NCBI GenBank assembly: GCA_052387235.1
Contig: JBQTJJ010000096.1
Coordinates: 1-53,743 of the forward strand
Direction: 5' to 3'
DNA from: Actinomycetota bacterium
GTDB taxonomy: Bacteria > Actinomycetota > Acidimicrobiia > Acidimicrobiales > GCA-2861595
DNA: 53,743 nt
A model generated the notes under the pieces. It was not told the DNA's origin. It worked only from the letters and a program-made list of their open reading frames with translations, and made no database searches. Made by a program: the position numbers and the translations under genes. Of the stretch, positions 4,983 through 39,503 are shown in pieces (position 1 is the stretch's first letter; each line of letters opens with the position of its first letter).

Positions 4983-5781
4983 GCGGACCTCCACCAGGCT
5001 GGGCTTGCGGGTGGTGGCCCTCGCCTACCTGGCCTTCCTCCTCGTCCTGCCCGTCGGCCTGGTGGGGTGGCGGACCTTCGAGGGCGGCCTGGGCCCGGTG
5101 CTCGACGCGCTGGGCGACCCCTCCGTCCTCCACGCCTTCCGGGTCACGGCCGTCGTGGCGTTCTGGACGGTCGTGCTGAACACCGTGTTCGGGGTGGGTG
5201 TGGCCGTGCTGCTGGTCCGCCATCGCTTCCCCGGCCACCGCGTCCTGAGCGCACTGATCGACCTGCCCCTCGCCGTCTCGCCCGTGGTGGTGGGCCTGGC
5301 CCTCATCCTGGTCTACGGCCGCTACGCCCCCGTCGGCGGGTGGCTGGACGACCAGGGCATCCAGGTCGTGTTCGCCCTGCCGGCCATGGTGCTGGCCACC
5401 GTGTTCGTCTCCCTGCCGCTGGTGGTGCGGGAGGTGGCGCCCGTGCTGGAGGAGATCGGCATCGAGCAGGAGCAGGCGGCGTGGACCCTGGGCGCCGGCC
5501 GGTTCCAGACCTTCCGCCGCATCACCCTCCCCGCCATCCGCTGGGCCCTGCTCTACGGCGTGGTGCTCACCCTGGCCCGGGCCATGGGCGAGTACGGTGC
5601 CGTGGCGGTGGTGTCCGGCCGGCTGGTGGACAAGACCCAGACGGTGACACTCGTGGTGGAGGAGCGCTTCCAGAACTTCGACCAGACCACCGCCTACGCC
5701 GCCTCGGTCGCCCTCGCCGCCGTCGCCGTCGTCATCCTGGTGGTCATCAGCCTCGTCCGCCCCGAGGGGAGAGAGCGATGA
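4975..5781 (+). CDS. cysW: sulfate ABC transporter permease CysW
   Basis: Track ORF with the motif EQEQAAWTLGAGRFQTFRRITLPA. The GTG start overlaps the end of cysT by 8 nt. Confidence 0.85.
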   Translation: MRERTSTRLGLRVVALAYLAFLLVLPVGLVGWRTFEGGLGPVLDALGDPSVLHAFRVTAVVAFWTVVLNTVFGVGVAVLLVRHRFPGHRVLSALIDLPLAVSPVVVGLALILVYGRYAPVGGWLDDQGIQVVFALPAMVLATVFVSLPLVVREVAPVLEEIGIEQEQAAWTLGAGRFQTFRRITLPAIRWALLYGVVLTLARAMGEYGAVAVVSGRLVDKTQTVTLVVEERFQNFDQTTAYAASVALAAVAVVILVVISLVRPEGRER

Positions 5782-7473: not shown

Positions 7474-7580
7474 AACGGAACACCCACGAAACGGCAAAGC
7501 CGGGGAAACCCGGTGACGCAAAGCCACGGACCTCACGGAGCTTCACCGCTCGCAAGGCAGCCGGGCTACCGAACGGGGGC
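7474..7580 (+). promoter_or_regulatory. c-di-GMP-I (GEMM-I) riboswitch aptamer
   Basis: The sequence reads ACGGCAAAGCC-GGG-GAAA-CCC-GGU-GACGCAAAGCCACGG...CAGCCGGGCUACCGAACG. This matches the remembered GEMM-I core (GGCAAACC, a GNRA-capped stem, GGGACGCAAAGCC, ...AGCGGGGUUACCGA of Vc2). Confidence 0.8.
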
Positions 7581-13022: not shown

Positions 13023-15863
13023 TCAGGCCGGTGGCACGCGGACCACCATGATCGCCATGTCGTCGTCGGGCGCGCCGTCCACGAAGTCGGTCGCGGCCTC
13101 CTCCACCCGCTCGGCCACGGCTGCGGCACCGGCGTCGCCGATGCCGGCGAGCACGGCGGCGATGCCCTCGTCGCCGAACTGGCGCCGGCCCCGGTGGCGC
13201 TCGGTGATGCCGTCGGTGAAGGCCACCAGGAGGTCGCCGGGGCCCAGGTGCACCTCCACCTCGGTGAGGGCGACGTCCTCCAGCAGGCCCAGGAGGTCGC
13301 CCGGCACGCCCACGGTCTCCACCGAGCCGTCCCGGCGCCGGACCAGCGGGCACGGGTGGCCGGCGGTGCAGACGGTGGCCCGCACCCCGTCGCCCTCCCG
13401 GTAGAGGGAGATGGCCACGACGGTGCAGAAGCGGGGCTCGAGGTGCCAGGCCGGCCCCTGGGCGGCGGCCTCGTCGGCCGAGGCCCGCAGGAGCAGGTCG
13501 TTGAGGTGGTGGAGCACGGCACCCGGCGACGGGTCGCCCAGGGCCCGCGACCGGATGGTGTGGCGGGCCAGGCCGGTGACGGCGGCCGCTTCCACGCCCT
13601 TGCCGCACACGTCGCCGACGGCCACGAACCAGCCCGACCCGGTGGCGAAGACGTCGAAGAAGTCCCCGCCCACGTCGAGGCCCTCGCCGGCGGCCACGTA
13701 GCGCCCGCCGAACTCGACGCCGTCGGCGGACGGCAGCACGGGCGGCAGCAGGCTGGCCTGCAGGGCCCGGGCCACGTGGCTGCGCTCGGTGAACAGCTGG
13801 GCGTTGGCGACGGCGCCGCCGGCCCGCTCGGCCAGGTCCTGGGCCAGGGAGAAGTCCGCCTCGGAGATCACCCGTCCCTGCTCGTTGGCCATGGCCATGG
13901 CGCCCACCACCCTCCCGCCGGCCCGCAGGGCCACCACCATGGCCGAGCCCAGGCCGAGCGTCCGCAGCAGCCGGGCGTGCTCGGCGTCGCGGGCCACGGC
14001 GTCGAGCAGCTCGGGCGCCACGACCTGGAACAGGATCGGCTCGCCCGTGGCCAGGCAGGAGCCGAGGCCGGGGTCGCCGACCTGGACGGGCCAGCGCCGG
14101 TGCAGCTCGCAGGCCAGCTCCCGCTTGGCGGGGTCGGCGTGCTCGGCCGTGACGAACACGGGGCGCCCGTCCTCGACGAGGTGGATGGAGCACCAGTCGG
14201 CCAGGCGGGGGACCACCAGCGCGGCCAGGCGGTGGAGGGTCTGGGAGACCTCGAGCGAGGCGTTGAGGAGCGCCGACGCCTCGGCCAGGAAGGCGAAGCG
14301 CTCGTGGTCGCGGCGCTCGGACTCGTGGAGCCGGGCCCGGTCCAGGGCCTGGGCCGCCTGGGTGGCGAGGGCGGTGAGGAAGGCCCGGTCGGCGGCGGGG
14401 AACTCCTGGGACTGGCGGAACCCGACGGCCACGGCGCCCAGCACCCGCCCGGGCTCCGGCTCGAGGGGGAGGATGGCGGTGGCCTTGCGCTCCGCCGCGA
14501 ACCGGCTGAACACGGGATAGCGCTCGTCGCACTCCTCGGCCGAGTGGAGGTAGACGGCCCGGCCGGTGCGGATGGACTCGCTGGCGGGCACGTCGTCCGA
14601 GAGGGCGAAGCGACCCCAGCGCCGCTCGACCTCGGACGAGTAGCCCACGGCCCGGAGGATCTCCACCGTCTCGCCGTCCGGCTGGAGGAGGCAGAACGAG
14701 CCGGTGGCGGCGCCGAGCAGCGCCAGGCCGCGGCCCAGGATCACGTCGGCCACCTGCAGCGAGTCGACGGCCCGGGACAGCCCGGCCGTGACCTCCTGGA
14801 GGCCCGCCAGCCGGGCCGCGGCCTGCTCGGCCACGGTGCGGGCCGTGCGCTCGGTGGCCAGCACCTCGTCGTCGGCCCGGCGCTGCGGAGGGCCCGCGGC
14901 CGCCGCGGGTGGCGACAGCGGGAACGGGCAGGGCCGGGGGGCCGACCCGTTGACCTGGCGCTCCACCTCGCCCGCGAACCAGCGGCGGTAGGCGCTCAGC
15001 TCGTCGGACGGCGCCAGGCTGAGGAGCGCGCCGCGGCGGCAGAAGGTGGCCACCTGCTCCAGCACGGACGTGAGGTGCCACAGGTCGGGGACGAGGTCCG
15101 GGGGGAGGCCGAGGCTGACGTCCATGAGGCGGTGGCCGGCGGCGGCGGCCCGGTGGGTGGCCTCGCGGACCGCCAGCCTGGCATCGGCGTGGCGCTCCAG
15201 CACCTCCTCGACCAGCCGGATCAGCGGGGTCGGCACGGTGTAGGCGATGTCCTGGTCGGCGAGGGTGAGCACCTGGAACTCGCGCACCAGGTCGTCGAGG
15301 TTGAGGTCGCTGGCCAGGGCGAGGCGCACCGGGACGGCCACCAGGCGGACGGGGACGATGCCGGCGCCGGTGGCCGGCGCCCGGCGCTCGTTGGCCCGGT
15401 GCTCGGTGCCGTCCGGCCCGCCGGTGGCCACCTCCATCCACACCGTCTTGCCGGCGTCGGTGGTGTCCACGCCCCAGCGGTCGGCCACGGACGAGACCAC
15501 GAGCAGGCCCCGGCCGGTCATGCTCTCCACGTCGAGGACCTCGTCGACGGACGCCGGCCGGCCCTGGCCGGCGCCGTCGGCCAGGGCCGCGTGCCAGGGC
15601 AGGCTCACCTCCCGTGGGCTCTCGTCCCGCACCTCGGCCCGGACGCCGGCGCCCCGCCGCTCGAGCACCACCTGGAGGTCGGTGCGGGCATGGAGCACGG
15701 CGTTGGCGACCAGCTCGGAGACGCCGAGGGCGACGTCGTCGGCCAGCGCCTCCAGGCCCCACGAGACGAGCACCTCCCGGACGGCGCGCCGGGCCCGGGC
15801 CGCGCTGGCCAGCTCCGGGGCCAGCCGGACCGACGTGGTGCCAGGAACTCCCCCCGGGTGCAC
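13023..15863 (-). CDS. OsaC-like multidomain regulator: N-terminal RsbW-type HATPase kinase, unknown region, two GAF domains, C-terminal PP2C/SpoIIE phosphatase
   Basis: Track ORF 13023..15980. The N-terminus ARRAVREVLVSWGL...ELVANAVLHA...GRGLLVVSSVADRWG is anti-sigma-kinase-like. The C-terminus GGDFFDV...GDVCGKGVEAA...FTDGITE...DDDMAIMVVR is PP2C-like. The start is uncertain: GTG at 15863 is preferred, with alternatives at 15953 and 15980. Confidence 0.8.
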   Translation of the reverse strand: MHPGGVPGTTSVRLAPELASAARARRAVREVLVSWGLEALADDVALGVSELVANAVLHARTDLQVVLERRGAGVRAEVRDESPREVSLPWHAALADGAGQGRPASVDEVLDVESMTGRGLLVVSSVADRWGVDTTDAGKTVWMEVATGGPDGTEHRANERRAPATGAGIVPVRLVAVPVRLALASDLNLDDLVREFQVLTLADQDIAYTVPTPLIRLVEEVLERHADARLAVREATHRAAAAGHRLMDVSLGLPPDLVPDLWHLTSVLEQVATFCRRGALLSLAPSDELSAYRRWFAGEVERQVNGSAPRPCPFPLSPPAAAAGPPQRRADDEVLATERTARTVAEQAAARLAGLQEVTAGLSRAVDSLQVADVILGRGLALLGAATGSFCLLQPDGETVEILRAVGYSSEVERRWGRFALSDDVPASESIRTGRAVYLHSAEECDERYPVFSRFAAERKATAILPLEPEPGRVLGAVAVGFRQSQEFPAADRAFLTALATQAAQALDRARLHESERRDHERFAFLAEASALLNASLEVSQTLHRLAALVVPRLADWCSIHLVEDGRPVFVTAEHADPAKRELACELHRRWPVQVGDPGLGSCLATGEPILFQVVAPELLDAVARDAEHARLLRTLGLGSAMVVALRAGGRVVGAMAMANEQGRVISEADFSLAQDLAERAGGAVANAQLFTERSHVARALQASLLPPVLPSADGVEFGGRYVAAGEGLDVGGDFFDVFATGSGWFVAVGDVCGKGVEAAAVTGLARHTIRSRALGDPSPGAVLHHLNDLLLRASADEAAAQGPAWHLEPRFCTVVAISLYREGDGVRATVCTAGHPCPLVRRRDGSVETVGVPGDLLGLLEDVALTEVEVHLGPGDLLVAFTDGITERHRGRRQFGDEGIAAVLAGIGDAGAAAVAERVEEAATDFVDGAPDDDMAIMVVRVPPA

Positions 15864-15951
15864 CCGCCAATTGTGCCGACCGCACCGGGCGCGGAGCGAG
15901 TCGGGCCGGGAAACCGGTTGCGCGCCGGCCCGGCCCGGACGACGCTGGGGC

Positions 15952-16094
15952 ATGCCCGCCGGCGCCCTCGACGTGGCCATCCGCCGGGCGCGGGTGGACG
16001 ACGTGGCGGCGGTGGTCGAGCTGTCGGCCGCCGTGGCAGCCGAGGGGCGCTGGATAGGCCGGGAGCAGGTGGACCCTGCCGAGCGCCGTAGCGC
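15952..16094 (+). pseudogene. possible remnant of a GNAT acetyltransferase N-terminus
   Basis: MPAGALDVAIRRARVDDVAAVVELSAAVAAEGRWIGREQVDPAERR looks like a GNAT N-terminus. Past 16095 the frame degenerates into S/R-rich sequence antisense to mobA. Confidence 0.25.
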
Positions 16095-16715
16095 TCAGCT
16101 CGGGGGCCGGAGCCGGGCCAGCTCCAGGTCCGACGCGGTGTTGATGTTGAGGAGCTCGTCGTCGACGGTCTCTACCGCGATGGCGTCCAGCTCGCTCAGC
16201 AGGGCCGTCATGCGCCGCACGCCCCTGGCCATGAGGCGCCGGCAGGCGTCCAGGGTGGCCTCCCGGGGGTAGCGGGCGCACAGGGGCTGGAGCCGGCGGT
16301 CGGTGGCGGCTACCGCCCGTCCCGCCGGCGCCGCCACCAGGCGGTCCAGCACCGGACCGGCGAAGGGGAGGTCGCAGGCCAGTACCAGGACGTCGTCGGT
16401 GTCGACGGCATCGAGGCCGGTGGCCAGGGCGTTCATCGGGCCCCGGATGCCGTCGCCGTCGAGGACCACGGGGACGTCGAGGGCGGGGAGGCCCACGCCC
16501 GGGCGGCTCACGACCACCACCGGATGGCACCGGGCGGCGAGGAGGTCGACGGCCCGCTCCGTGAGGGTACGGCCCCGGACCACCACCGTTGCCTTCGGCC
16601 GCCCGAGCCGGCTGCCGCTGCCGCCGGCGAGGACCAGGCCGGCGAGGGACGAATCGGCACGGGTCACGGGAACGACGGTAGCCAACCGGGCGGGCAGGTC
16701 GGCGCTTCCCCGCAC
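16095..16715 (-). CDS. mobA: molybdenum cofactor guanylyltransferase (MobA-like NTP transferase)
   Basis: Track ORF containing LAGLVLAGGSGSRLGRPKA...PMNALATGL...VLACDLPF. The start is uncertain. The GTG at 16715 lies inside the 65-bp repeat, and an alternative GTG is at 16667. Confidence 0.8.
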   Translation of the reverse strand: MRGSADLPARLATVVPVTRADSSLAGLVLAGGSGSRLGRPKATVVVRGRTLTERAVDLLAARCHPVVVVSRPGVGLPALDVPVVLDGDGIRGPMNALATGLDAVDTDDVLVLACDLPFAGPVLDRLVAAPAGRAVAATDRRLQPLCARYPREATLDACRRLMARGVRRMTALLSELDAIAVETVDDELLNINTASDLELARLRPPS

Positions 16716-16764
16716 TCCCGAGTAAATAACTCGCCAAATTGGCGAGTTATTTACTCGGGACGGG
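16700..16764. repeat. 65-bp repeat, copy 1, containing a perfect AT-rich palindrome (16717-16759; 21-bp arms, 1-nt centre)
   Basis: The palindrome is CCCGAGTAAATAACTCGCCAA-A-TTGGCGAGTTATTTACTCGGG. 61 of 65 positions are identical to 20981-21045 in direct orientation. GC is about 47%, against about 70% in the flanks. Confidence 0.95.
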
Positions 16765-16786
16765 AGGCATCGGGTGCTTGTTCCCG

Positions 16787-16815
16787 TTGTCGTCGGAAGT
16801 AGTGGCGGCTATCTT
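16787..16815 (+). promoter_or_regulatory. candidate housekeeping-type promoter TTGTCG-N17-TATCTT for the giant surface-protein gene
   Basis: The -10 fits the actinobacterial TANNNT pattern. It lies about 40 nt upstream of the ATG at 16855 and downstream of the palindrome. Confidence 0.35.
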
Positions 16816-16854
16816 TCGGACGACCCGGCGCCGCTCGGGTCGCCGGGAGGCCCG

Positions 16855-19800
16855 ATGGGGGACCAGGACTACCGCGGTCGGTCCTTCCCAGAAGCCGCGA
16901 TCAGGGACATGGAGGACGCCGTGGCCAGCGAGGGACGGACCGCTTCATTCGCGCCGCCCGGGAGTCGGCTCCGCGCCACCCGGACGGTCGCTGCGCTGGG
17001 CACCGCCGCCGCGGTGGTGGTGGGCGGCCTCGCCATCCCCACGGTCTGGTCGGCCGCCACCGGCCGGGGTCGGGCGCCGGCGGCGCCGGACGCCACCGCC
17101 ACGGTCGCGCGGGCCTACGCCCAGCTCCCGTTGCGGTTCGAGCCGAACCGGGGCCAGTCCGGCCAGGGCGTGCAGTTCCTGGCGCGCGGCGCCGGCTACA
17201 CCGCCTTCATCTCCGGCGCCGGGTCGGTCCTGCGCGTCGGCGGCGCCGACGTCCCCATGACGATGGTGGGCGCCGATCCCGGCGCTCCCGCCGCTACCGG
17301 CCGCCGGCTCCCGGGCGTGACCAACTACCTGAACGGCGCCGACCCGAAGGGCTGGCTCACCGGCGTCCCCGGCTTCGACCGGGTCCGGTTCGACGGCGTC
17401 TACCCCGGCATCGACCTGGTGTACCGGGGCCAGGGCCGCTCCCTGAAGTACGACTTCGTGGTCGCACCGGGCGCCGACCCCGGCCGCATCGCACTGGAGC
17501 TGGGGCCGCCGTCGACGGTGTCGATAGAGCCCGGCGGCGACCTGGTCGTCGCCACGCCCGCCGGCGACGTCCGCCACGAGAAGCCGTACGTGTACCAGGA
17601 CGTCGACGGGAAGCGCCGCACCGTGACCGGGTCCTACGTCCGGCGGGCCGACGGCCACATCGGCTTCCGCCTCGGCACCTTCGACCGGTCCCGCGCCCTG
17701 GTGATCGACCCGGTCGTCGCCTACTCCACCCTGCTCGGTGGCAGCGGGTCCGACTCGGGCCTGGCGGTGGCGGTCGACGGGGCCGGGAGCGCCTTCGTCG
17801 CCGGGCAGACGGCCGCGTCCAACTTCCCCACCGTGGGCCCGGCCCAGGGGGCGCTCTCGGGCGCCAGCGACGCCTTCGTGACCAAGCTCAACCCGGCCGG
17901 AACGGACCTCGTCTACTCCACCTTCCTGGGTGGCGGCAACGTCGAGGCGGCCAACGGCATCGCCGTCGACGCCTCGGGCAACGCCTACGTCACAGGCGAG
18001 ACCCGCTCCGACAACTTCCCCACGGTGGCGCCGATCCAGGCCGCCCGCGGCGGCGGTACCTGCGGGACGGCCCCCAACACCTTCCCGTGCCCCGACGTGT
18101 TCGTGGCCAAGCTGAACGCCACCGGGTCGGCCCTCCTCTACGGCACCTACCTTGGGGGCAGCGCGTCCGACGTCGGTCGTGCCGTCGCCGTCGACGGGTC
18201 CGGCAGCGCCTACGTCACCGGCGACACGGCATCGACCGCCTTTCCCCGGGTGGGCGCCCTCCAGAACACCAAGGGCGCCGGCACCAGCAGTGACGCCTTC
18301 GTCTCCAAGCTCAACGCCGCCGGCTCGGCCCTCACCTACTCCACCTTCCTGGGCGGGGGCCAGGCCGACGTCGGGCGCGGCATCGCCGTCGACGCCGCAG
18401 GCAACGCGCACGTCACCGGGGACGCCTCGTCCACCGACTTCCCGGTGGCCAGCGCCCTCCAGGGCACCAGCGCCGGCGGCGGGGACGCGTTCGTGACCAA
18501 GTTCAACCCGGCGGGCTCGGCCCACCTGTACTCCACGTACCTCGGCGGCGCCGGCGCCGACGCCGGCCGGGCCATCGCCCTCGACCCGTCGGGCAGCGCC
18601 TACGTGGCCGGGAGCACGGCATCGGAGAACTTCCCGGTCGCATCCGCCTTCCAGGGCGCCAAGCCCGGTGGCGACGACGGCTTCGTCACCAAGCTGGACG
18701 CAGCCGGGGCCGCCCTCGTGTACTCGACCTATCTCGGCGGTCTCGGCCCCGACTCGGCCAACGGGATCGCCGTGGACGGGTCGGGAAGCGCCCATGTGGG
18801 GGGCACCACGTCGTCGACGGACTTCCCCGTCGCGGCACCGGTGGCGGTCCGGGCCGGGAGCGGCGACGCCTTCGTGGCGCAGCTCGCGCCGGCGGGCAAC
18901 GGGCTGGTGCACGCCGCCCCGTTCGGCGGCAGCGCCAACGACTCGGGCCACGGCATCGCCGTCGACGCCGCTGGCTCGTCGTACCTCGCCGGCCAGGCCG
19001 CCCCGTTCATCGACGAGATCACCGACGACTTCCCCACCGTCAACGCGCTGCGGGCCAGCTTCGCCGGCAGCAACGACGCCTTCGTGACCAAGATCTCCCC
19101 CCTGCCCGCCGGCCTTCCCCTCGTCACCGCGCTGTCGCCGAGGAGCGGCCCCGCGGGGACCTCCGTCCTGCTGAGCGGGTCCGGCCTGTCCGGGGCCACC
19201 GCCGTCCGCTTCGGCTCCGTCGCCGCCACGTCGTTCTCGGTGCTCTCGGCCGCCCAGATCCGGGCCGTCGCGCCCGCCCAGGCCGCGGCCGCGGCCACCG
19301 TCACCGTCACCACGCCGGCGGGCACCTCGCCGCCGAACCCGGCGGCCCGCTACACCTACGGCGAGGGAACGTGGGAGCTCACGGGCGCCCAGGCCACGGC
19401 CCGCGTCGCCACTCGTTCGGTCCTGCTGGCCGACGGCAGGGTCCTCCTCGCCGGCGGCCGGGACCGCCAGAACGGCACGGCGGTCGCCTCGGCCGAGGTC
19501 TACGACCCGAAGACCGGCACGTGGGCCCTCACCGGTTCCATGACCGTGGGCCGGACGGCCCACACGGCCACCCTGCTGCGCAACGGCAAGGTGCTGGTGA
19601 CCGGGGGCGCCACGGGCAACCTGACCACCAACGCGCAGCCCCAGCTGGCCACGGCCGAGCTGTTCGACCCGGCCACGGGGACCTGGAGCGCCACCGGCAC
19701 CATGGCCACCAGCCGCTACCTCCACTCCGCCCACCTCCTCCGCGACGGCCGGGTGCTGGTGGCCGGCGGCCGGTTCTGCGCCTCCCCGCCGCCCGCCTCC

Positions 19801-21006
19801 TGCGACTTCACCCAGTTCACGGCCTCGGCCGAGATCTACGACCCCGCCACCGGCGCCTTCACCGCCACCGGCAGCATGAGCGTGCCCCGCCACACCACCG
19901 AGGCCACCATCCTCAACGACGGCCGCATCCTCATCCCGGCCGGCTTCGGTGGCCCCTCCAGCGGGCACAACTCGGCCGACGTCTTCGACCCGGCCACCAA
20001 CACCTGGACGCCCACGGGCCCGCTCAACATCGGTCGCTCCCGGCAGGGCGCGGTCACCCTCAGGGACGGGCGGGTCCTGATCGCGGGCGGGTTCAGCGGC
20101 GCCAACACCGCCGAGCTGTACGACCCGGCCACCAACAAGTGGACGCTCACCGGCAGCCCCAACTCCAGCGGCCGGAACAACTTCTTCATGGGCCTGCTGC
20201 CCAACGGCCGGGTGCTGCTCGCCGGCGGTGGGCCGGGCGGCTTCACGGCAGAGATCTACGACCCGGGGACCGGGCGGTGGACCTCGGGCGGCACCATGCA
20301 CACGTCGCGGGGCATCGCCGGCACGCCGTACAACAGCGTCCGGCCGGTGCTGCTGTCGAGCGATCCCTTCAAGGTCGAGGCCGACCCGGCCGTCTGCGGC
20401 AGCAACTGCCTCAAGATGCTGCTGGCCGGCGAGAGCGACGACCGCCGGGCCGAGCTGTACCTGCCGGCCGCCGCCGTCACCGACAAGGGCTACTGGACCG
20501 TCGCCAGCGACGGCGGCATCTTCGCCTTCGGCGGTGCCCAGTTCCACGGCTCCACCGGCGCCATCCGGCTCAACCAGCCGGTGGTGGGCATGGCGGCCAC
20601 GCCGTCGGGCAGGGGCTACTGGCTGGTGGCCAGCGACGGCGGCATCTTCGCCTTCGGCGACGCCGCCTTCCGCGGCTCCACCGGCGGCGTCCGGCTCAAC
20701 CGCCCGGTGGTCGGCATGGCCGCCACCCGCACCGGAAAGGGCTACGCCCTGGTCGCCTCGGACGGTGGCATCTTCGCCTTCGGCGACGCCCAGTTCCACG
20801 GCTCCACCGGCGCCCTCCGGCTCAACCAGCCAGTGGTGGGCATGGCCGCCACGCCCTCCCTCGGCGCCTTCAACGGGTACTGGCTGGTGGCGGCCGACGG
20901 TGGCATCTTCGCCTTCGGCGACGCCAGCTTCCACGGCTCCACCGGCGCCATCCGCCTCAACCGGCCCATGGTGGGCATGGCGGCGCTTCCCCGCGCTCCC
21001 GAGTAA
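16855..21006 (+). CDS. giant secreted/anchored surface protein: N-terminal TM anchor, SBBP beta-propeller repeats, IPT/TIG domain, Kelch-type propeller, four C-terminal 42-45-aa repeats
   Basis: Track ORF 16774..21006 was trimmed to the ATG at 16855 (GGGAGG 4 nt upstream). It has repeated ...[20 protein letters not shown]...G.AVD..GNAYVTG.T.S.NFP (SBBP-like). [19 protein letters not shown]...[10 protein letters not shown] is IPT-like. GRVLLAGG...[11 protein letters not shown] is Kelch-like. [23 protein letters not shown] occurs four times. Confidence 0.85.
20488..20990 (+). repeat. four tandem coding repeats (126, 126, 135 and about 116 nt)
   Basis: GGCTACTGG...GACGGCGGCATCTTCGCCTTCGGCG...GGCTCCACCGGCG...CTCAACC...GTGGGCATGGC recurs at 20488, 20614, 20740 and 20875. 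Confidence 0.9.
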
Positions 21007-21045
21007 ATAACTCGCCAATACGGCGAGTTATTTACTCGGGACGGG
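20981..21045. repeat. 65-bp repeat, copy 2, containing the AT-rich palindrome (20998-21040; 19-bp arms, 5-nt loop); probable bidirectional terminator position
   Basis: The palindrome is CCCGAGTAAATAACTCGCC-AATAC-GGCGAGTTATTTACTCGGG. It contains the TAA stop (21004-21006) of the giant gene and ends 8 nt from the valS stop codon. Confidence 0.95.
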
Positions 21046-21047
21046 GG

Positions 21048-23552
21048 TCAGGCGACGGCGGGGTCGGCGAGGGTGACCTCGACCGACGGGGCGTCGGCCT
21101 CCTCCAGGCGCAGCTCGGCCACCGAGCCGGCGTCGCAGAGGTCGGCCTCGGCCGCGGCCAGGGCGTCGAGGCGGGCCCGGGAGTCGCGGACCACGACCAC
21201 CGAGACCGGGGCCCGCTGGGACAGCTTGGCCTCGCTCTTGGCCTTGCGGACGGCCCGGAGGACGGCGCTGGCCACCTCGAGCACGAGGGGGTCGCCGGCG
21301 CCGGCGCCAACCAGCTCGGCCGCCGTGGGCCACGGGCCGCGGTGGACCGAGCCCTGCTGCCACCACGACCACACCTCCTCGGCCACGAAGGGCAGGAAGG
21401 GGGCGAACAGGCGGTGGAAGGCGGAGAGGGCCAGGCCCAGGGTGGCGGTGGCCGACCCGCCCCCGGCGCCGCCCCGGTAGGCCCGGTTCTTCACCAGCTC
21501 CACGTAGTCGTCGCAGAAGGACCAGAAGAAGGCCTCGGTGCGCTCGAGGGCCCGGGCATAGTCGTAGCCCTCGAAGGCGGTGGTGGCCTCGTCCACCAGC
21601 CGGGCCAGGCCGGCCAGGAGGGCGACGTCGAGGGGCGCCGAGGGCGATCCCTCGGCCCGGGGCAGCGACAGGACGAACTTGGAGGCGTTGAGGACCTTGA
21701 TGGACAGGCGCCGGCCGTTCTTCATCTGGTTCTCGTCGAAGGCGGTGTCGGTGCCGGGCCGGCCGTTGGCGGCCCAGTAGCGCACCGCGTCGGAGCCGTA
21801 CTGCTCCAGCAGGGCCATGGGCGTGACGACGTTGCCCTTCGACTTGGACATCTTCTTGCGGTCCGGGTCGAGGATCCAGCCCGAGATGGTGGCGTCGGTC
21901 CACGGGAGCGAGCCGTCGTGGAGGTGGTAGGAGCGGACCACGGTGGAGAACAGCCAGGTGCGGATGATGTCGTGGGCCTGGGGCCGGACGTCGAAGGGGA
22001 AGACCATGGCGAACAGCTCGTGGTCGACGCCCCAGCCGCCGGCGATCTGGGGCGTGAGCGACGACGTGGCCCACGTGTCCATGACGTCCGGGTCGGCGGT
22101 GAACCCGCCCGGCCGGTCCCGCTGGTCCTCGGTGTAGCCGGGCGGGACAGCGGTGGAGGGGTCGACCGGCAGCGACTCCTCGGTGGCCCGGATGGGCTGG
22201 TCGAACGCCGGCCCCCCGTCGGCGTCCACCGGGTACCAGATCGGGAAGGGAACGCCGAAGAAGCGCTGGCGGCTGATGAGCCAGTCGCTGTTGAGGCCGT
22301 CGACCCAGTTCTCGTACCGGGCCTGCATGAACGGCGGGTGCCAGCTCAGCTCCCGGCCCTTGTCCTTCAACGCCTCCTTGTGGTCCAGCACGTTGATGAA
22401 CCACTGGCGGCTGGTGACGATCTCGAGGGGGCGGTCGCCCTTCTCGAAGTACTTGACGGGATGGGTGATGGGGCGGGGCTCGCCCACCAGGTCGCCCGAC
22501 GCCGTCAGCCGGTCGACGATCCGGGCGCGGGCCTGCTTGGCGGTGGCGCCGGCCAGCTCCCGCCACGCGTCGCCCTCGGGGACGCCGTCGGGCGGCGTCT
22601 CGAGGACCCGGCCGTCCCGGCCCAGCATGCTGCGCACGGGCAGGTCCAGCTCGCGCCACCAGACCACGTCGGTGAGGTCGCCGAAGGTGCAGATCATGGC
22701 GATGCCGGAGCCCTTCTCCGGGTCGGCCAGCTCGTGGGCCAGGATCGGGACCTCCACGCCGAACAGCGGCGTGGGCACGGTGGAGCCGAAGCGGGGCCCG
22801 AAGCGTTCGTCGTCGGGGTGGGCCACCAGGGCGACGCACGCCGGGATGAGCTCGGGCCGGGTGGTCTCGATCTCGACGTCGCCGAAGCGGATGCGGTGGT
22901 AGGCGCCGGCCGTCTCCCGGTCCTCCAGCTCGGCCTGGGCCACCGCCGTCTGGAAGTCCACGTCCCAAAGCGTGGGCGCGACCCGCTGGTAGGCGGTCCC
23001 GCCGTCCAGCAGGCGCAGGAACGCCAGCTGGGAGACCTTCTGGGTCTGGTCGCCGATGGTGGTGTAGGTGGTGCTCCAGTCGACCGAAAGGCCCAGGCGG
23101 CGGAACAGGTCCTCGAAGGCCCGCTCGTCCTCGGCGGTGAGCCGGTGGCACAGCTCCACGAAGTTGGGTCTGGACACCGGCTGCTGGTGCTTCGCCTTCG
23201 GGCCCGGTGGGTCGAGGTCGGGCTCGTAGGCGAGGTGCGGGTCGCACCGGACGCCGAAGTAGTTCTGGACGCGCCGTTCCGTGGGGAGGCCGTTGTCGTC
23301 CCACCCGATCGGGTAGAAGACCTGCTTCCCCCGCATGCGCCAGAACCGGGCCAGCGTGTCGGTGTGGGTGTACGAGAACACGTGCCCCACGTGCAGCGAC
23401 CCGCTGACCGTGGGTGGCGGGGTGTCGACGGAGAAGACCTCGGAGCGAGGGCCCCGCCGCTCGAATGCGTACGTGCCCTGCTCCTGCCAGCGCGCCGCCC
23501 AGCGCGCCTCGAGGCCCTCGAGCGACGGTTTTTCCGGGACGTTGGCGGCCAT
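21048..23552 (-). CDS. valS: valine--tRNA ligase
   Basis: Track ORF 21048..23597 was trimmed to the ATG at 23552 (MAANVPEKPSLEGLE). Motifs are PPTVSGSLHVGHV (HIGH), KMSKSKGNVV (KMSKS) and WDDNGLPTE. Confidence 0.9.
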   Translation of the reverse strand: MAANVPEKPSLEGLEARWAARWQEQGTYAFERRGPRSEVFSVDTPPPTVSGSLHVGHVFSYTHTDTLARFWRMRGKQVFYPIGWDDNGLPTERRVQNYFGVRCDPHLAYEPDLDPPGPKAKHQQPVSRPNFVELCHRLTAEDERAFEDLFRRLGLSVDWSTTYTTIGDQTQKVSQLAFLRLLDGGTAYQRVAPTLWDVDFQTAVAQAELEDRETAGAYHRIRFGDVEIETTRPELIPACVALVAHPDDERFGPRFGSTVPTPLFGVEVPILAHELADPEKGSGIAMICTFGDLTDVVWWRELDLPVRSMLGRDGRVLETPPDGVPEGDAWRELAGATAKQARARIVDRLTASGDLVGEPRPITHPVKYFEKGDRPLEIVTSRQWFINVLDHKEALKDKGRELSWHPPFMQARYENWVDGLNSDWLISRQRFFGVPFPIWYPVDADGGPAFDQPIRATEESLPVDPSTAVPPGYTEDQRDRPGGFTADPDVMDTWATSSLTPQIAGGWGVDHELFAMVFPFDVRPQAHDIIRTWLFSTVVRSYHLHDGSLPWTDATISGWILDPDRKKMSKSKGNVVTPMALLEQYGSDAVRYWAANGRPGTDTAFDENQMKNGRRLSIKVLNASKFVLSLPRAEGSPSAPLDVALLAGLARLVDEATTAFEGYDYARALERTEAFFWSFCDDYVELVKNRAYRGGAGGGSATATLGLALSAFHRLFAPFLPFVAEEVWSWWQQGSVHRGPWPTAAELVGAGAGDPLVLEVASAVLRAVRKAKSEAKLSQRAPVSVVVVRDSRARLDALAAAEADLCDAGSVAELRLEEADAPSVEVTLADPAVA

Positions 23553-23572
23553 GATGGGGTTACCGTACCTGC

Positions 23573-24934
23573 GTGCTGCGCCTCCACGACACTGCATCGG
23601 GTGCTGTACGCGAGCTCGGGCTCCGCGATCCGGGCCGGGTCTCGATGTATGTCTGCGGTCCCACCGTCTACGGGCCGCCCCACATCGGCCACGGCCGCCA
23701 ACTGCTGGTGTACGACGTCCTCCGCCGCTACCTGGAGTGGACCGGCCTCGATGTGCGCCACGTCTCCAATGTCACCGACATCGACGACAACATCATCAAG
23801 CGGGCCAACGAGGAGGGCCGGTCGTGCGACGACGTGACGGCCGAGTTCGAGAAGGCCTGGTACGACGCCGTCGACGCCCTGGGCGTGCTGCGGCCCCACG
23901 AGGACCCGCACGCCACCGCCTACGTGGCCGAGATGGTGGGCCTCATCGGGGAGCTGGTGGCGCGGGGCATCGCCTACGAGCTGGCCGACGGCGTGTACTT
24001 CGGCGTGGAGGCGGTGGACGGCTACGGGCTGCTGGCCCGGCAGTCGCTGGCTTCCCTGCGAGCCGGCGAGCGGGTCGACCTGGTGGAGGGCAAGCGGTCC
24101 CCGTTCGACTTCGTCCTGTGGAAGCGGGCCAAGCCGGGGGAGCCCGAGTGGGACTCGCCCTGGGGCGCCGGCCGCCCGGGCTGGCACACCGAGTGCGTGG
24201 TGATGTCGCTCCAGCTGCTGGGCGACGGCTTCGACCTCCACGCCGGCGGGCTCGATCTCCAGTTCCCGCACCACGAGAACGAGCGGGCCCAGGCCGTGGC
24301 CCTCGGGCACGAGTTCTCCCGCCACTGGATGCACCACGCCTTCGTGGAGACGGCGGGGGAGAAGATGTCGAAGTCGCTCGGCAACTTCACCACCCTGCCC
24401 GACCTGCTGTCGCGCACCGACCCCCGGGCCTACCGGCTGGTGGTGCTCCAGTCCCACTACCGCTCACCCCTCGACGTGATGCCCGAGAACATCGGCAACG
24501 CCGAACGGGCCCTGGCCAAGCTCGACGAGCTCCACCGGCGGTGGGCCATGGAGGAGGGGCGGCCACCCGACGCGGCGGCCGATCCGGCGGCGCTCGGGCA
24601 GTTCAGGGCGTGCATGGACGACGACCTGTCCACGCCGGCCGCCACCGGGCTGCTGTTCGACCTGGTGGGCCGGGCCAACGCCGCCCTGGCCGCCGGCGAC
24701 ACCGCCGGCGCGGCGCCGGCGGTGGCGGCCGCCTTCGAGATCGCGGCCGCCCTCGGGCTGGCTCCGAAGGCGGCGGACACCGCCCTCGACGACGAGACCC
24801 GCCGGCTGGTGGCGGCGCGTGACGACGCCCGGGCGGCCCGGGATTTCGCCCGGTCCGACGCCATCCGCGCCGAGCTCACGGCCCGGGGCTGGGTCGTCCA
24901 GGACACGCCCGCCGGCACCACCGTCCACCGCTGA
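23573..24934 (+). CDS. cysS: cysteine--tRNA ligase
   Basis: Track ORF with motifs MYVCGPTVYGPPHIGHGR (HIGH), GWHTECV and KMSKSLGNF. Confidence 0.9.
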   Translation: MLRLHDTASGAVRELGLRDPGRVSMYVCGPTVYGPPHIGHGRQLLVYDVLRRYLEWTGLDVRHVSNVTDIDDNIIKRANEEGRSCDDVTAEFEKAWYDAVDALGVLRPHEDPHATAYVAEMVGLIGELVARGIAYELADGVYFGVEAVDGYGLLARQSLASLRAGERVDLVEGKRSPFDFVLWKRAKPGEPEWDSPWGAGRPGWHTECVVMSLQLLGDGFDLHAGGLDLQFPHHENERAQAVALGHEFSRHWMHHAFVETAGEKMSKSLGNFTTLPDLLSRTDPRAYRLVVLQSHYRSPLDVMPENIGNAERALAKLDELHRRWAMEEGRPPDAAADPAALGQFRACMDDDLSTPAATGLLFDLVGRANAALAAGDTAGAAPAVAAAFEIAAALGLAPKAADTALDDETRRLVAARDDARAARDFARSDAIRAELTARGWVVQDTPAGTTVHR

Positions 24935-29339: not shown

Positions 29340-29542
29340 TCCGGGGGATCGGCCCGGGCCCCGGAAACGGCCTCTCGTCCCTATTCACCGGGCGCGCCGA
29401 GCGCGGGCGCCCGACGCAGGCGAGCCGACCGGGCCCGAACCCCGGGCGCCGGGTACCCCTGAAGACGCCCGGCCCCGTCGCCCGACGAGCTGCCCGAGGT
29501 GCTCACGGAGATCTCCGCCCGCCTCGTCCACCAGCGCGATTC

Positions 29543-29583
29543 CGCGTGCAGAAACCGCCCGGCCAGGGCGGTTTCTGCACGCG
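29543..29583. terminator. 18-bp perfect hairpin between convergent genes
   Basis: CGCGTGCAGAAACCGCCC-GGCCA-GGGCGGTTTCTGCACGCG. Confidence 0.6.
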
Positions 29584-29618
29584 AAACGGGGAACCGTACG
29601 CACGGGAGCCGGGCGCCG

Positions 29619-30617
29619 TCAGACGTGCAGCACGGCGGCGCCGTGCACCCGGTCGTGGGCGAGGTCCCGCAGGGCCCGGTCGGCGTCACCCAGCGCGTAG
29701 GCCGTCGTCTCGACGCGCAGGCCGATGCGGGCCGCCAGGTCCAGGAAGGCTCTGCCGTCGGCGCGCGTGTTGGCGGTGACGCTGCGGACCTGGCGCTCCT
29801 GGAAGAGGTGATCGGCGTAGCGGAGGGGCGGGATGTCGCTGAGGTGGATGCCGGCGATGGCGACGGTGCCGCCACGGTCGAGTGCCGACAGGGCGACCGG
29901 GACGATCTCGCCGGCGGGGGCGAAGATGATGGCGGCATCCAGTGCCTCGGGTGGCGGGTCGTACGTGTCGCCCGCCGAGGCGGCGCCGAGGTCGAGTGCG
30001 AGCCGGCGGGCCGGCTCGGAGCGGGTCATCACGTGGACCCGTGCCCCTTCGGCCACCGCGACCTGCGCCGCGAGGTGGGCGGAGGCGCCGAACCCGAACA
30101 CGCCCAGCCTTCCACCCGGGGGGAGCTCGGCCCGGCGCAGGGCCCGGAAGCCGATGATGCCGGCGCACAGGAGGGGAGCGGCGTGCTCGTCGTCGAATGC
30201 GGGCGGGATCTCGTAGGCGAAGCGCTCGTCGACGACGGCGTGCTCGGCGTAGCCGCCGTCGGCGTCCCAGCCCGTGAAGAGCGGCGACAGGCACAGGTTC
30301 TCGTCGCCGCGGAGGCAGAACCGGCAGGTGCCGCAGGTGGACCGGAGCCAGGCGATCCCGACCCGGTCGCCGACGGCGAACCGGCTTGTGGCCGGCCCCA
30401 GTGCGTCGACGACGCCCACGATCTCGTGGCCTGGCACCGTGCGCGGCCGTCTCGGAGCGAGATCGCCCTCGGCCAGGTGCAGATCCGTCCGGCACACCCC
30501 GCACGCAGCCACGCGTACACGCAGCTCACCGTCGCCCGGTTGCGGAGGGTCCCGATCGATCGCGGCCATCGGCGACCCGTCGATCGGCCCCGGTGTGTGC
30601 ACCACCCACGCCTTCAC
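29619..30617 (-). CDS. zinc-binding alcohol dehydrogenase (MDR family)
   Basis: This is the tail of track ORF 29619..31400, from the GTG at 30617 ([11 protein letters not shown]). Motifs are [30 protein letters not shown] and GFGASAH. Confidence 0.85.
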
Positions 30618-30721
30618 GTAGATACGAGTCTGCGCCGGCGGCGCTGGAATTGCGAGGTCGGGCGGAGGCTGCGGTCCCTGGGCCCCGGCGGAGGTTGCGG
30701 TCCCGGCATGGCGCCCCGCCC

Positions 30722-31582
30722 TCAGACGTAGCGCCCCATGGCGGCCACGGCCGAGGCGCCGTAGCCCCCGCCGAAGATCACGGCGTGCACGAGCAGCGGC
30801 AGGACCTGCCAGAGCTCGACGCGCTCCTCGTGTCCCTCGGCCAGCGGCGTCGCCTCCTCGTAGGCGGCGAGGAAGGCCGGGCCGGGCGCGCCGAAGAGCC
30901 GGAGCATGGCGAGGTCGATCTCGCGGTGGCCGCCGTAGGCGGCGGGGTCGACGAGCCACGGGCGCCCGCCGGCGCCGGTCATCACGTTGCCGGTCCACAG
31001 GTCGCCGTGCAGCCGGGCCGGCGGCTCGGGCGGCCCGGCCAGCTCGGGCAGGCGGGCGGCGAGCCTGTCGAGCAGGCCCGGCGCCGCGGGCGGCAGCGCC
31101 CCGCGGTCGGCGGCCATGCGAGCGAGGGGCTCGAGCCGGCGGGTCACGTAGAACGAGGGCCAGTCGTCGCACGGGTCGTTGGGCAGTGTGAGCGGCCCGA
31201 GCACGAGGTCGTGGCCGCCGCCGTGGGCGGGGGCGCCGGCGGCGTGGAGCGCGGCCAGGCCCCGGCCGAGGTCCTCCTCGGTCCCCGTCGTGCGGTGGCC
31301 GGGCTCCACCCACGACAGGGCCAGGAAGCGCGGGCCCCCGGGTTCGTCGGCGACGGCGAGCACGTCGGGGACGGGGAGGGCGCCGGCCCGGGCCAGCCAT
31401 GCCAGCCCCTCGGCCTCGCGGGAGTAGGCGTGCGGCGCGGCATCGGCTGCGGTCTTGACGAACACCCGGGTCCCACCTGCCAGCTCGGCCGCGTAGGCGT
31501 CGTTGAGGTCGCCGCCGGCCATCGGACGCAGGTCGGCGACGGGCGAGTCGAGGGCGCCGGCCAGGGCGTCAGCGAGGCGCAC
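30722..31582 (-). CDS. fructosamine/ketosamine-3-kinase family protein
   Basis: This is the tail of track ORF 30722..31975, from the GTG at 31582. Motifs are [21 protein letters not shown] and [11 protein letters not shown]. Confidence 0.8.
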
Positions 31583-39426: not shown

Positions 39427-39503
39427 TCAGCGAAAACGGCAAACCCGTCGCAAGGCGGGGACGCAAAGCCACGGGACCCACGCGGTCAGCCGGGCTACCG
39501 AAC
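39427..39503 (+). promoter_or_regulatory. c-di-GMP-I (GEMM-I) riboswitch aptamer
   Basis: The sequence reads ACGGCAAACC-CGUC-GCAA-GGCG-GGGACGCAAAGCCACGGGACCCACGCGGUCAGCCGGGCUACCGAACG. It has a GNRA-capped P1b stem, an exact GACGCAAAGCC core and an AGCCGGGCUACCGA 3' element. It ends directly at the SD GAGGAG (39504-39509). Confidence 0.85.

Follow-up and report, generated by a model that had tools for sequence, protein, structure and literature searches.

A perfect palindrome dispersed in one Acidimicrobiia clade and its putative layout as a bidirectional terminator

We analysed a stretch of 53,743 nucleotides from an Acidimicrobiales bacterium (contig JBQTJJ010000096.1 of GenBank assembly GCA_052387235.1, positions 1 to 53,743), referred to below as the window, in which two copies of a palindromic repeat, here called element E, lie on either side of a gene encoding a giant secreted or surface-type protein. 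The best match of the valine-tRNA ligase (ValS) of this host is 84%, and a look-up of its exact sequence gave no entry. Related genomes and contigs are cited by their L numbers. The locus holds the following features, with scores from a covariance model of E for the two copies:

16095-16667, minus strand: mobA-like gene for a molybdenum cofactor guanylyltransferase of 190 amino acids (aa), with a GTG start at 16667
16689-16769, no strand assigned: copy 1 of E, between the divergent giant gene and mobA, with a perfect palindrome at 16716-16760 (72.7 bits); the family-level unit covers about 16708-16768, and the similarity specific to the pair runs from 16689 to 16769
16855-21006, plus strand: gene for the giant secreted or surface-type protein (1383-1410 aa), with DUF7948, SBBP repeats, TIG, Kelch repeats and four 42-aa C-terminal repeats
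20970-21050, no strand assigned: copy 2 of E, between the convergent giant gene and valS, with a perfect palindrome at 20997-21041 (70.8 bits)
21048-23597, minus strand: valS, valine-tRNA ligase (NF000540, 1364 bits), with cysS next to it

The first-pass annotation of this DNA had described a pair of direct repeats with a core of about 47% GC, and re-measurement gave the same result: 16700-16764 and 20981-21045 are identical at 61/65 positions in direct orientation, their start-to-start distance is 4281 bp and the 43-nt core has 46.5% GC in a window of about 74% GC. In a repeat search of the window the similarity reached further, over 81 nt (16689-16769 and 20970-21050), with 89% identity. The three differences within the core all fall in the loop, as had been noted, and the palindromes are perfect; the arm lengths originally given, 21 and 19 bp, were each off by one, since copy 1 has arms of 22 nt (16716-16737 and 16739-16760) with 1 nt between them and copy 2 has arms of 20 nt (TCCCGAGTAAATAACTCGCC) around the loop AATAC, as read off the sequence. 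The 19-mer arm is found at just these four places in the window, where the chance expectation is 0 (100 shuffles), and a search for GAGTAAATA with at most one mismatch found no window sites beyond the four arms. The folding energies of either strand, as RNA or as DNA, are far below those of shuffled sequences (z = -6 to -8). An assembly chimera is an unlikely origin of the pair, as the copies differ at 4/65 positions and the arrangement recurs in the independent assemblies L222 and L223.

Both copies lie close to gene ends. Copy 2 supplies the TAA stop of the giant gene, as had been predicted: the open reading frame (ORF) 16774-21006 closes with the GAG-TAA at 21001-21006 inside copy 2, and its final seven codons (ALPRAPE*) come from the repeat flank and E. 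The longest ORF begins at 16774, but the ATG at 16855, which is preceded by GGGAGG, is the likelier start. On the other side of copy 2, the stop codon of valS (21048-21050) lies 7 nt off the end of the element. The first-pass annotation also had copy 1 overlapping the start of mobA, an overlap that appears only because the longest ORF was taken (GTG at 16715); the lengths of the MobA homologues (190-191 aa) and the start of the L219 gene, at the GTG equivalent to 16667, indicate 16667 as the true start, with about 50 nt between it and the palindrome of copy 1. On the minus strand, 7 nt upstream of this GTG, the motif TACCGT (16675-16680) is present in all relatives as GGCTAC(C/G)GTCG and is likely the -10 box of a leaderless mobA transcript.

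Both repeats are copies of E, a perfect palindrome of 45-60 nt that is dispersed in one Acidimicrobiia clade. The outer arms of E are AT-rich and invariant (CTCCCGAGTAAATA / TATTTACTCGGGAG), and its centre consists of a GC-rich inner stem of 7-8 bp and a loop of 3-5 nt. The inner stem is always self-complementary, with a sequence typical of each genome. The exact inner stem of the window gave no match in a search of one genome per GTDB species, which places the source genome outside these representatives. A pattern made of the outer arms (CCGAGTAAATA-N10-40-TATTTACTCGG) gave 45 matches in the GTDB species genomes, 41 of them in five Acidimicrobiia metagenome-assembled genomes. The remaining four (Nostochopsis, Glaciecola and two clostridia) were set aside as chance sharing of an 11-mer, as they lie in AT-rich surroundings, against a host of 74% GC. 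Seven further copies with the window-type inner stem were found on seven large contigs of one metagenome sample. In L001, the closest relative in the ValS comparison, the contig ends just after the valS stop, inside a palindrome (4993-5042) with the same outer arms and another inner stem. The dominant inner stems are as follows:

SC-S bin.62: AGGTCCGG
N_bin.10 and M3-S bin.196: GGTCACCG
ant_bin.349: ACCACCGG
nzgw85: GGGTGTCG
window-type metagenome: ACTCGCC

The first-pass annotation had offered a dispersed element like a repetitive extragenic palindromic (REP) sequence or a miniature inverted-repeat transposable element (MITE) as one explanation of the pair, and on the point of dispersal it was right, as the palindrome stands at dozens of places beside unrelated genes in related genomes. 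The arms are paired in 114/115 occurrences and the arm-to-arm spacing is 19 nt in 54/58 copies; the density is about one E per 20-70 kb on contigs that were chosen because they contain E. Readings of E as a DNA-uptake sequence and as a CIRCE element (GCACTC...GAGTGC) were rejected, the former since the half-sites never occur alone and the latter on spacing. An Rfam search with both copies, in gathering and E-value modes, gave no bacterial family and only sub-threshold matches of microRNA type, which we read as chance resemblance to a long hairpin. The 71-nt unit had no BLAST match among plasmids and phages, and a single pattern match in IMG/VR was taken as chance, lying on a contig of 42-49% GC with its inner part unpaired. 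A full-text literature search found no published description of E, which thus appears to be undescribed, yet of a known type, namely a palindromic repeat like REP or TRIT (the Tuberculosis Rho-independent terminator motif).

The covariance model, derived from the aligned family copies and run on the window, returned only copy 1, copy 2 and one weak look-alike:

29532-29594, no strand assigned: weak E-like palindrome, CGCGTGCAGAAACCGCCC-GGCCA-GGGCGGTTTCTGCACGCG (31.2 bits, E-value about 1e-6)

This palindrome has arms of 18 nt around the loop GGCCA and the same order of A-tract, GC stem and T-tract as E, but it was rejected as a family member because its sequence differs. The stop of a minus-strand ORF (29619-31400) is about 25 nt away, and the palindrome is probably an ordinary bidirectional terminator.

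We then examined base pairing in an alignment of 54 distinct copies of E. Paired cells amounted to 90.4%, against 32-45% when the partners were slid along each other, and changes on both sides of a pair were seen in 175 cells, compared to 73 in shuffles. All eight pairs of the inner stem covary, and both G-U pairs and mismatches are nearly absent. This complementarity is not an artefact of the search, because the inner 19 nt were left free in the pattern. The outer-arm variants come from relaxed searches, and here too changes are compensated, as in L226 (GAGTACATA/AATGTACTC), in L130 (GAGGAAATA/TATTTCCTC) and in L222, where the arms have been re-paired (CCCTGGAGGAAAG/CTTCCCTCCAGGG). The small dyad CGAGT-N5-ACTCG that had been reported within each arm is present only because the inner stem of the window genome happens to be ACTCGCC; the unrelated inner stems found in other genomes do not have it.

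The positions of the copies relative to genes were determined with a simple gene caller based on GC content at third codon positions, which was validated on the window. Of the copies examined, 21 lie between convergent genes, 18 between tandem genes and 4 between divergent genes, while 11 are at contig edges. E is found within about 40 nt of gene 3′ ends, preferentially between convergent genes: the stop codon is inside E (at -6 or -10) for 29/60 adjacent 3′ ends, as GAG-TAA in 18 cases and as AGT-AAA-TAA/TAG in 11, and the other 31 genes end 9-38 nt before it. The neighbouring genes are unrelated to each other and mostly of the housekeeping type (ilvC, gltB, aconitase, aminotransferase, valS, ADH and larA, together with one DUF559/AbiEi-like gene). 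The orientation of E relative to the upstream gene showed no strand bias, with T-rich loops in 15 cases and A-rich loops in 14, and none was found for the stem-base variants TTTC/GGGA versus TCCC/GAAA. A gene with a DUF559/AbiEi_4 domain is bracketed by two copies of E in L127 (912-1929); the bracket is shared by L127, from the window-type metagenome, and L091 (6762-7781), from SC-S bin.62, where no gene was called between the copies.

The history of the valS-mobA locus was followed through MobA homologues and their contigs, with neighbour-joining trees of MobA and ValS. The synteny comparison with relatives lacking the giant gene, which the first-pass annotation had proposed, was run: mobA comes right after valS throughout the sister clade (L224-L227) and in L002, the outgroup. 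E is partly retained between the two genes there: it is present in L225, where its GAG-TAA is the stop of valS, in L226 as a compensated variant and in L224 in decayed form, and it is absent in L227 and L002. Orthologues of copy 2 are found at the valS 3′ end in L001, L223, L225 and L226; the one in L224 is decayed, and in L222 the outer arms have been re-paired. Copy 2 is an old copy at the end of valS, older than the giant gene, since it also stands in relatives in which mobA comes right after valS. The order valS-giant gene-mobA is found in L222 and L223, and the order giant gene-mobA is seen in L219 and L220. The genomes that carry the giant gene (the window, L219, L220, L222 and L223, and in the ValS tree also L001) are monophyletic in both the MobA and the ValS trees, and the orientation of the gene is identical wherever it is visible. 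This single clade and single orientation show that the giant gene entered the valS-E-mobA spacer once, in the ancestor of the subclade. The TACCGT motif, as the candidate -10 box of mobA, suggests where the edge of this insertion lies. The absence of the gene from the sister clade and the outgroup is ancestral rather than the product of excision.

The other end of the insertion appears to have been remodelled. The spacer of L224 on the 3′ side of E (ACGGGGATGGGGGGC) returns in L223 as the antisense of the last codons of the giant gene (..PLPRLE*), and the orthologue of the giant gene in nzgw85, which is at another locus, ends in VGMATASFG* without E. From the spacer match and the E-less end of this orthologue we infer that the incoming gene may have lost its last few codons and read into the old spacer in antisense, with the TAA of E becoming its stop. 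The four 42-aa repeats at the C-terminus of the giant protein span 20466-20993, and they are met again at the C-terminal ends of further large proteins that related genomes encode (L107, L111, L130, L066 and L141).

Elsewhere in the window, the gene just downstream of mobA (13023-15980, minus strand) encodes a large regulator that combines HATPase_c_2, a pair of GAF domains and a phosphatase domain of the SpoIIE (PP2C) type. Two c-di-GMP-I riboswitch aptamers, both above the gathering threshold, lie on the plus strand at 7483-7573 (RF01051, 69 bits) and at 39429-39503 (RF03167, the GGC variant, 70 bits).

Copy 1 has a different history from copy 2. An intact E at the junction of the giant gene and mobA is found in the window only; the copy is degenerate in L223 and absent from the orthologous site in L222, L220 and L219 (MobA 96% identical to that of the window). 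Between the window and L219 the difference is an indel of 54 nt, which is E itself. Among 72 comparisons of nine window-type copies, in both orientations, the window pair alone shares a 28-nt flank, and this left flank is identical at 24/28 positions, beyond the family consensus. The flanks of copies 1 and 2 in the window are more alike than the orthologous flanks of copy 2 in the window and L223, which suggests that copy 1 arose recently, either as a copy of copy 2 or as a gene-conversion product of it, with 10-25 nt of flank. An old duplicate that was lost three times is the other possible origin, and L223 keeps a degenerate copy there.

Turnover of this kind is seen in other copies of E. 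Orthologous sites in different genomes have the same outer arms and 76-92% identity in the flanks, and in 7/11 pairs (e.g., L123 versus L128) only 4-8 of the inner 19 nt match. In one pair (position 405 of L085 and 4191 of L103), with flanks 96-97% identical, the sole difference is the loop, GAAAC versus GTTTC, and here the palindrome is inverted in place. An 87-nt segment of L121 that contains E is absent from L107, with flanks 97-98% identical, and the best match of this copy and its near flank is another copy, L107_7778. No target-site duplication of at least 2 nt was found in the two empty-site comparisons, window/L219 and L121/L107. As far as such comparisons reach, they indicate that E would turn over by concerted evolution and by copy-and-paste with flanking DNA, not as a transposon with defined ends.

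We put at about 60% the probability that E is a palindromic repeat of the REP/TRIT type which evolves in concert within genomes and has the layout of a bidirectional intrinsic terminator. The GC stem is followed by UAUUUACU, with AGUAAAUA preceding it on the other strand, a symmetric and classical layout, and by direct reading the inner stem with TATTTACT (5 T of 8) looks like a terminator, to which the position just after genes is suited. Because of this layout and the bias towards 3′ ends and convergent genes, we favour, with moderate confidence, a function as a bidirectional intrinsic terminator or as a 3′-end hairpin. Judged by its layout and by the positions of the family, a role of copy 2 as a bidirectional terminator, as had first been suggested, would fit. 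In the ancestral arrangement valS-E-mobA, E would separate valS from the probable leaderless promoter of mobA (TACCGT-N7-GTG). Copy 1, between divergent genes, probably has no terminator task, and its loss in most relatives fits the absence of an obvious one. Template switching driven by the hairpin, gene conversion or some enzyme may homogenise E within a genome and spread it.

Several observations weigh against this interpretation. A simple terminator scan of the window left E unflagged, as the maximal extension of the stem swallows the T-tract. The orthologous hairpin in L222 lacks the A and T tracts and is still paired, which argues for the hairpin as such and not for the U-tract. Most genes in the window have neither E nor a comparable hairpin, and hence E is not the general terminator. 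The scarcity of G-U pairs and the unbiased orientation of the loop suit a palindrome acting at the DNA level equally well, and the invariance of the outer arms is partly due to the search pattern, which fixed them. For TRIT itself, the predicted sites overlap only 2-4% of the Term-seq 3′ ends of M. tuberculosis (bioRxiv 10.1101/2022.06.01.494293).

A more tentative interpretation of the same data is that E is a modular, self-homogenising palindrome, in which the AT-rich arms anchor the wholesale exchange of the 19-nt inner stem-loop, flips in place and copy-and-paste with flank to new 3′ ends. Were this so, Acidimicrobiia would be expected to possess a dedicated enzyme that recognises hairpins, or else a specific pathway of hairpin-primed template switching, and E would rewrite the C-termini and stop codons of about half of its neighbouring genes as a by-product.

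A doubtful, though not negligible, alternative is a purely selfish nature of E, as a REP/MITE-like mobile element that depends on a dedicated enzyme from a gene elsewhere (e.g., a RAYT/IS200-like HUH transposase) for its movement, whose siting at 3′ ends reflects tolerated insertions and for which termination is incidental. The single dominant inner stem in each genome is suggestive of bursts from a master copy, presence and absence vary between relatives that are 96-98% identical, one pair shows the palindrome flipped in place, the stop codons within E imply that it inserted into the final codons of genes, and copy 1 lies where a terminator is useless. However, no transposase adjoins any copy, E has no GTAG-type head, no target-site duplication accompanies the two empty sites, and the indel units have variable, non-consensus flanks (54, 65-81 and 87 nt), unlike an element with defined ends. 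Orthologous copies have also persisted across a ValS divergence of about 80-85%. A tblastn search with E. coli RayT gave one spurious match, in an HtrA-like gene, although this is a weak test, as only about 0.47 Mb of the roughly 2 Mb of contigs searched came from E-bearing genomes.

We regard as improbable that E is the site of a dimeric DNA-binding protein (a global regulator, a nucleoid protein or a recombination site) with two invariant half-sites of 11-14 nt at a fixed spacing of 19 nt. The half-sites are indeed invariant across genomes and AT-rich in a background of 74% GC, the spacing holds in the 54/58 copies mentioned above, and the changes are strictly of the Watson-Crick type with G-U pairs nearly nil. 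But a spacer need not self-pair, yet that of E is always perfectly complementary and covaries; isolated half-sites do not occur, given the pairing of 114/115 arms; the copies are at 3′ ends and not at promoters; and L222 has changed both half-sites while retaining the hairpin.

The first-pass annotation had also considered a cassette, with the repeats as att- or attC-like borders and recombination between them excising or inverting the 4.3-kb giant gene, or having once brought it in. This is very improbable. In its favour, direct repeats of 81 nt, which are also inverted, bracket a single accessory-type gene, gene-less relatives with mobA right after valS exist and the nzgw85 orthologue is at a different locus. 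Against it, L219, L220, L222 and L223 all have the gene at one site and in one orientation, although three of them lack the second repeat, and the gene-less genomes are a sister clade and an outgroup. The core proved to be a hairpin that commonly follows unrelated genes, the outcome that the first-pass annotation had named as fatal to this interpretation, and the other copies of E are singletons or bracket housekeeping genes. The neighbours (mobA, valS, cysS and the SpoIIE/GAF protein) include no integrase, transposase or cassette array, and the perfect palindrome of E has neither attC-type extrahelical bases nor R''/R' core sites. Hence the gene of the giant surface protein is no cassette but a stable insertion that is passed on vertically.

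For annotation, E marks true 3′ ends and explains short, lineage-specific C-terminal tails, and it also creates false N-terminal extensions, as at the mobA start here. Its palindromes probably break short-read assemblies, the L001 contig that ends inside one being an example.

E can be compared with several known systems. It differs from a MITE in having no flanking target-site duplication at the two empty sites compared (indels of 54 and 87 nt). Like the attC sites of integrons, E is palindromic with conserved outer and variable inner parts, lies right after ORFs, with the stop sometimes inside, and is homogeneous within a species. Unlike attC, it has no integrase, tandem array or extrahelical bases, its copies are scattered singly and the gene that it brackets here is immobile among relatives; the RYYYAAC/GTTRRRY cores are missing in most variants, GTTATTT being found only in the variant of the window genome. 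REP elements have proposed roles in the stabilisation of mRNA 3′ ends and in termination. E resembles the REP, BIME and REPIN sequences of Enterobacteria, Pseudomonas and Stenotrophomonas in being a short extragenic palindrome at 3′ ends or between convergent genes, with species-specific variants and long-lived orthologous copies, whereas it has no GTAG head (54-copy consensus CTCCCGAGTAAATA...), is a perfect and not an imperfect palindrome, and has outer arms conserved between genera around a changing centre, the reverse of what is predicted for a RAYT head plus hairpin.

With the canonical bidirectional intrinsic terminator, E shares a GC-rich stem of 7-8 bp, a loop of 3-5 nt, a U-rich tract (UAUUUACU, 5 U of 8) with a complementary A tract, and the position between convergent genes. 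Czyz et al. (2014, PMC3993855) describe a U-tract as a requirement of mycobacterial RNA polymerase. Unlike ordinary terminators, E is conserved in sequence and evolves in concert, and its stem runs 12-20 bp past the A/U tracts. Since its A/U tracts and its GC stem can be separated, E makes a cleaner test case. The way in which high-GC Actinomycetota end transcription is under debate, canonical terminators being scarce there, and to our knowledge TRIT is the only conserved terminator motif described in this group.

TRIT has 147 copies in M. tuberculosis and was reported only in Mycobacterium; it is mostly bidirectional and is found at gene termini, with a very narrow distribution of positions overlapping the stop codon (about -8) (Gardner et al. 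2011, PMC3152330). E, like TRIT, is a palindromic hairpin of conserved sequence that is repeated across a high-GC actinobacterial genome and overlaps stop codons (at -6/-10 in 29/60 cases). It is likened to TRIT in form and position, by the published description of the latter, and differs from it in its Acidimicrobiia host, its perfect palindrome, its AT-rich conserved part and its genome-specific inner stem, as well as in an apparently lower copy number. E would thus be a second, independent conserved palindrome that overlaps stop codons, in a distant class, which suggests either a recurrent solution or a recurrent genomic parasite.

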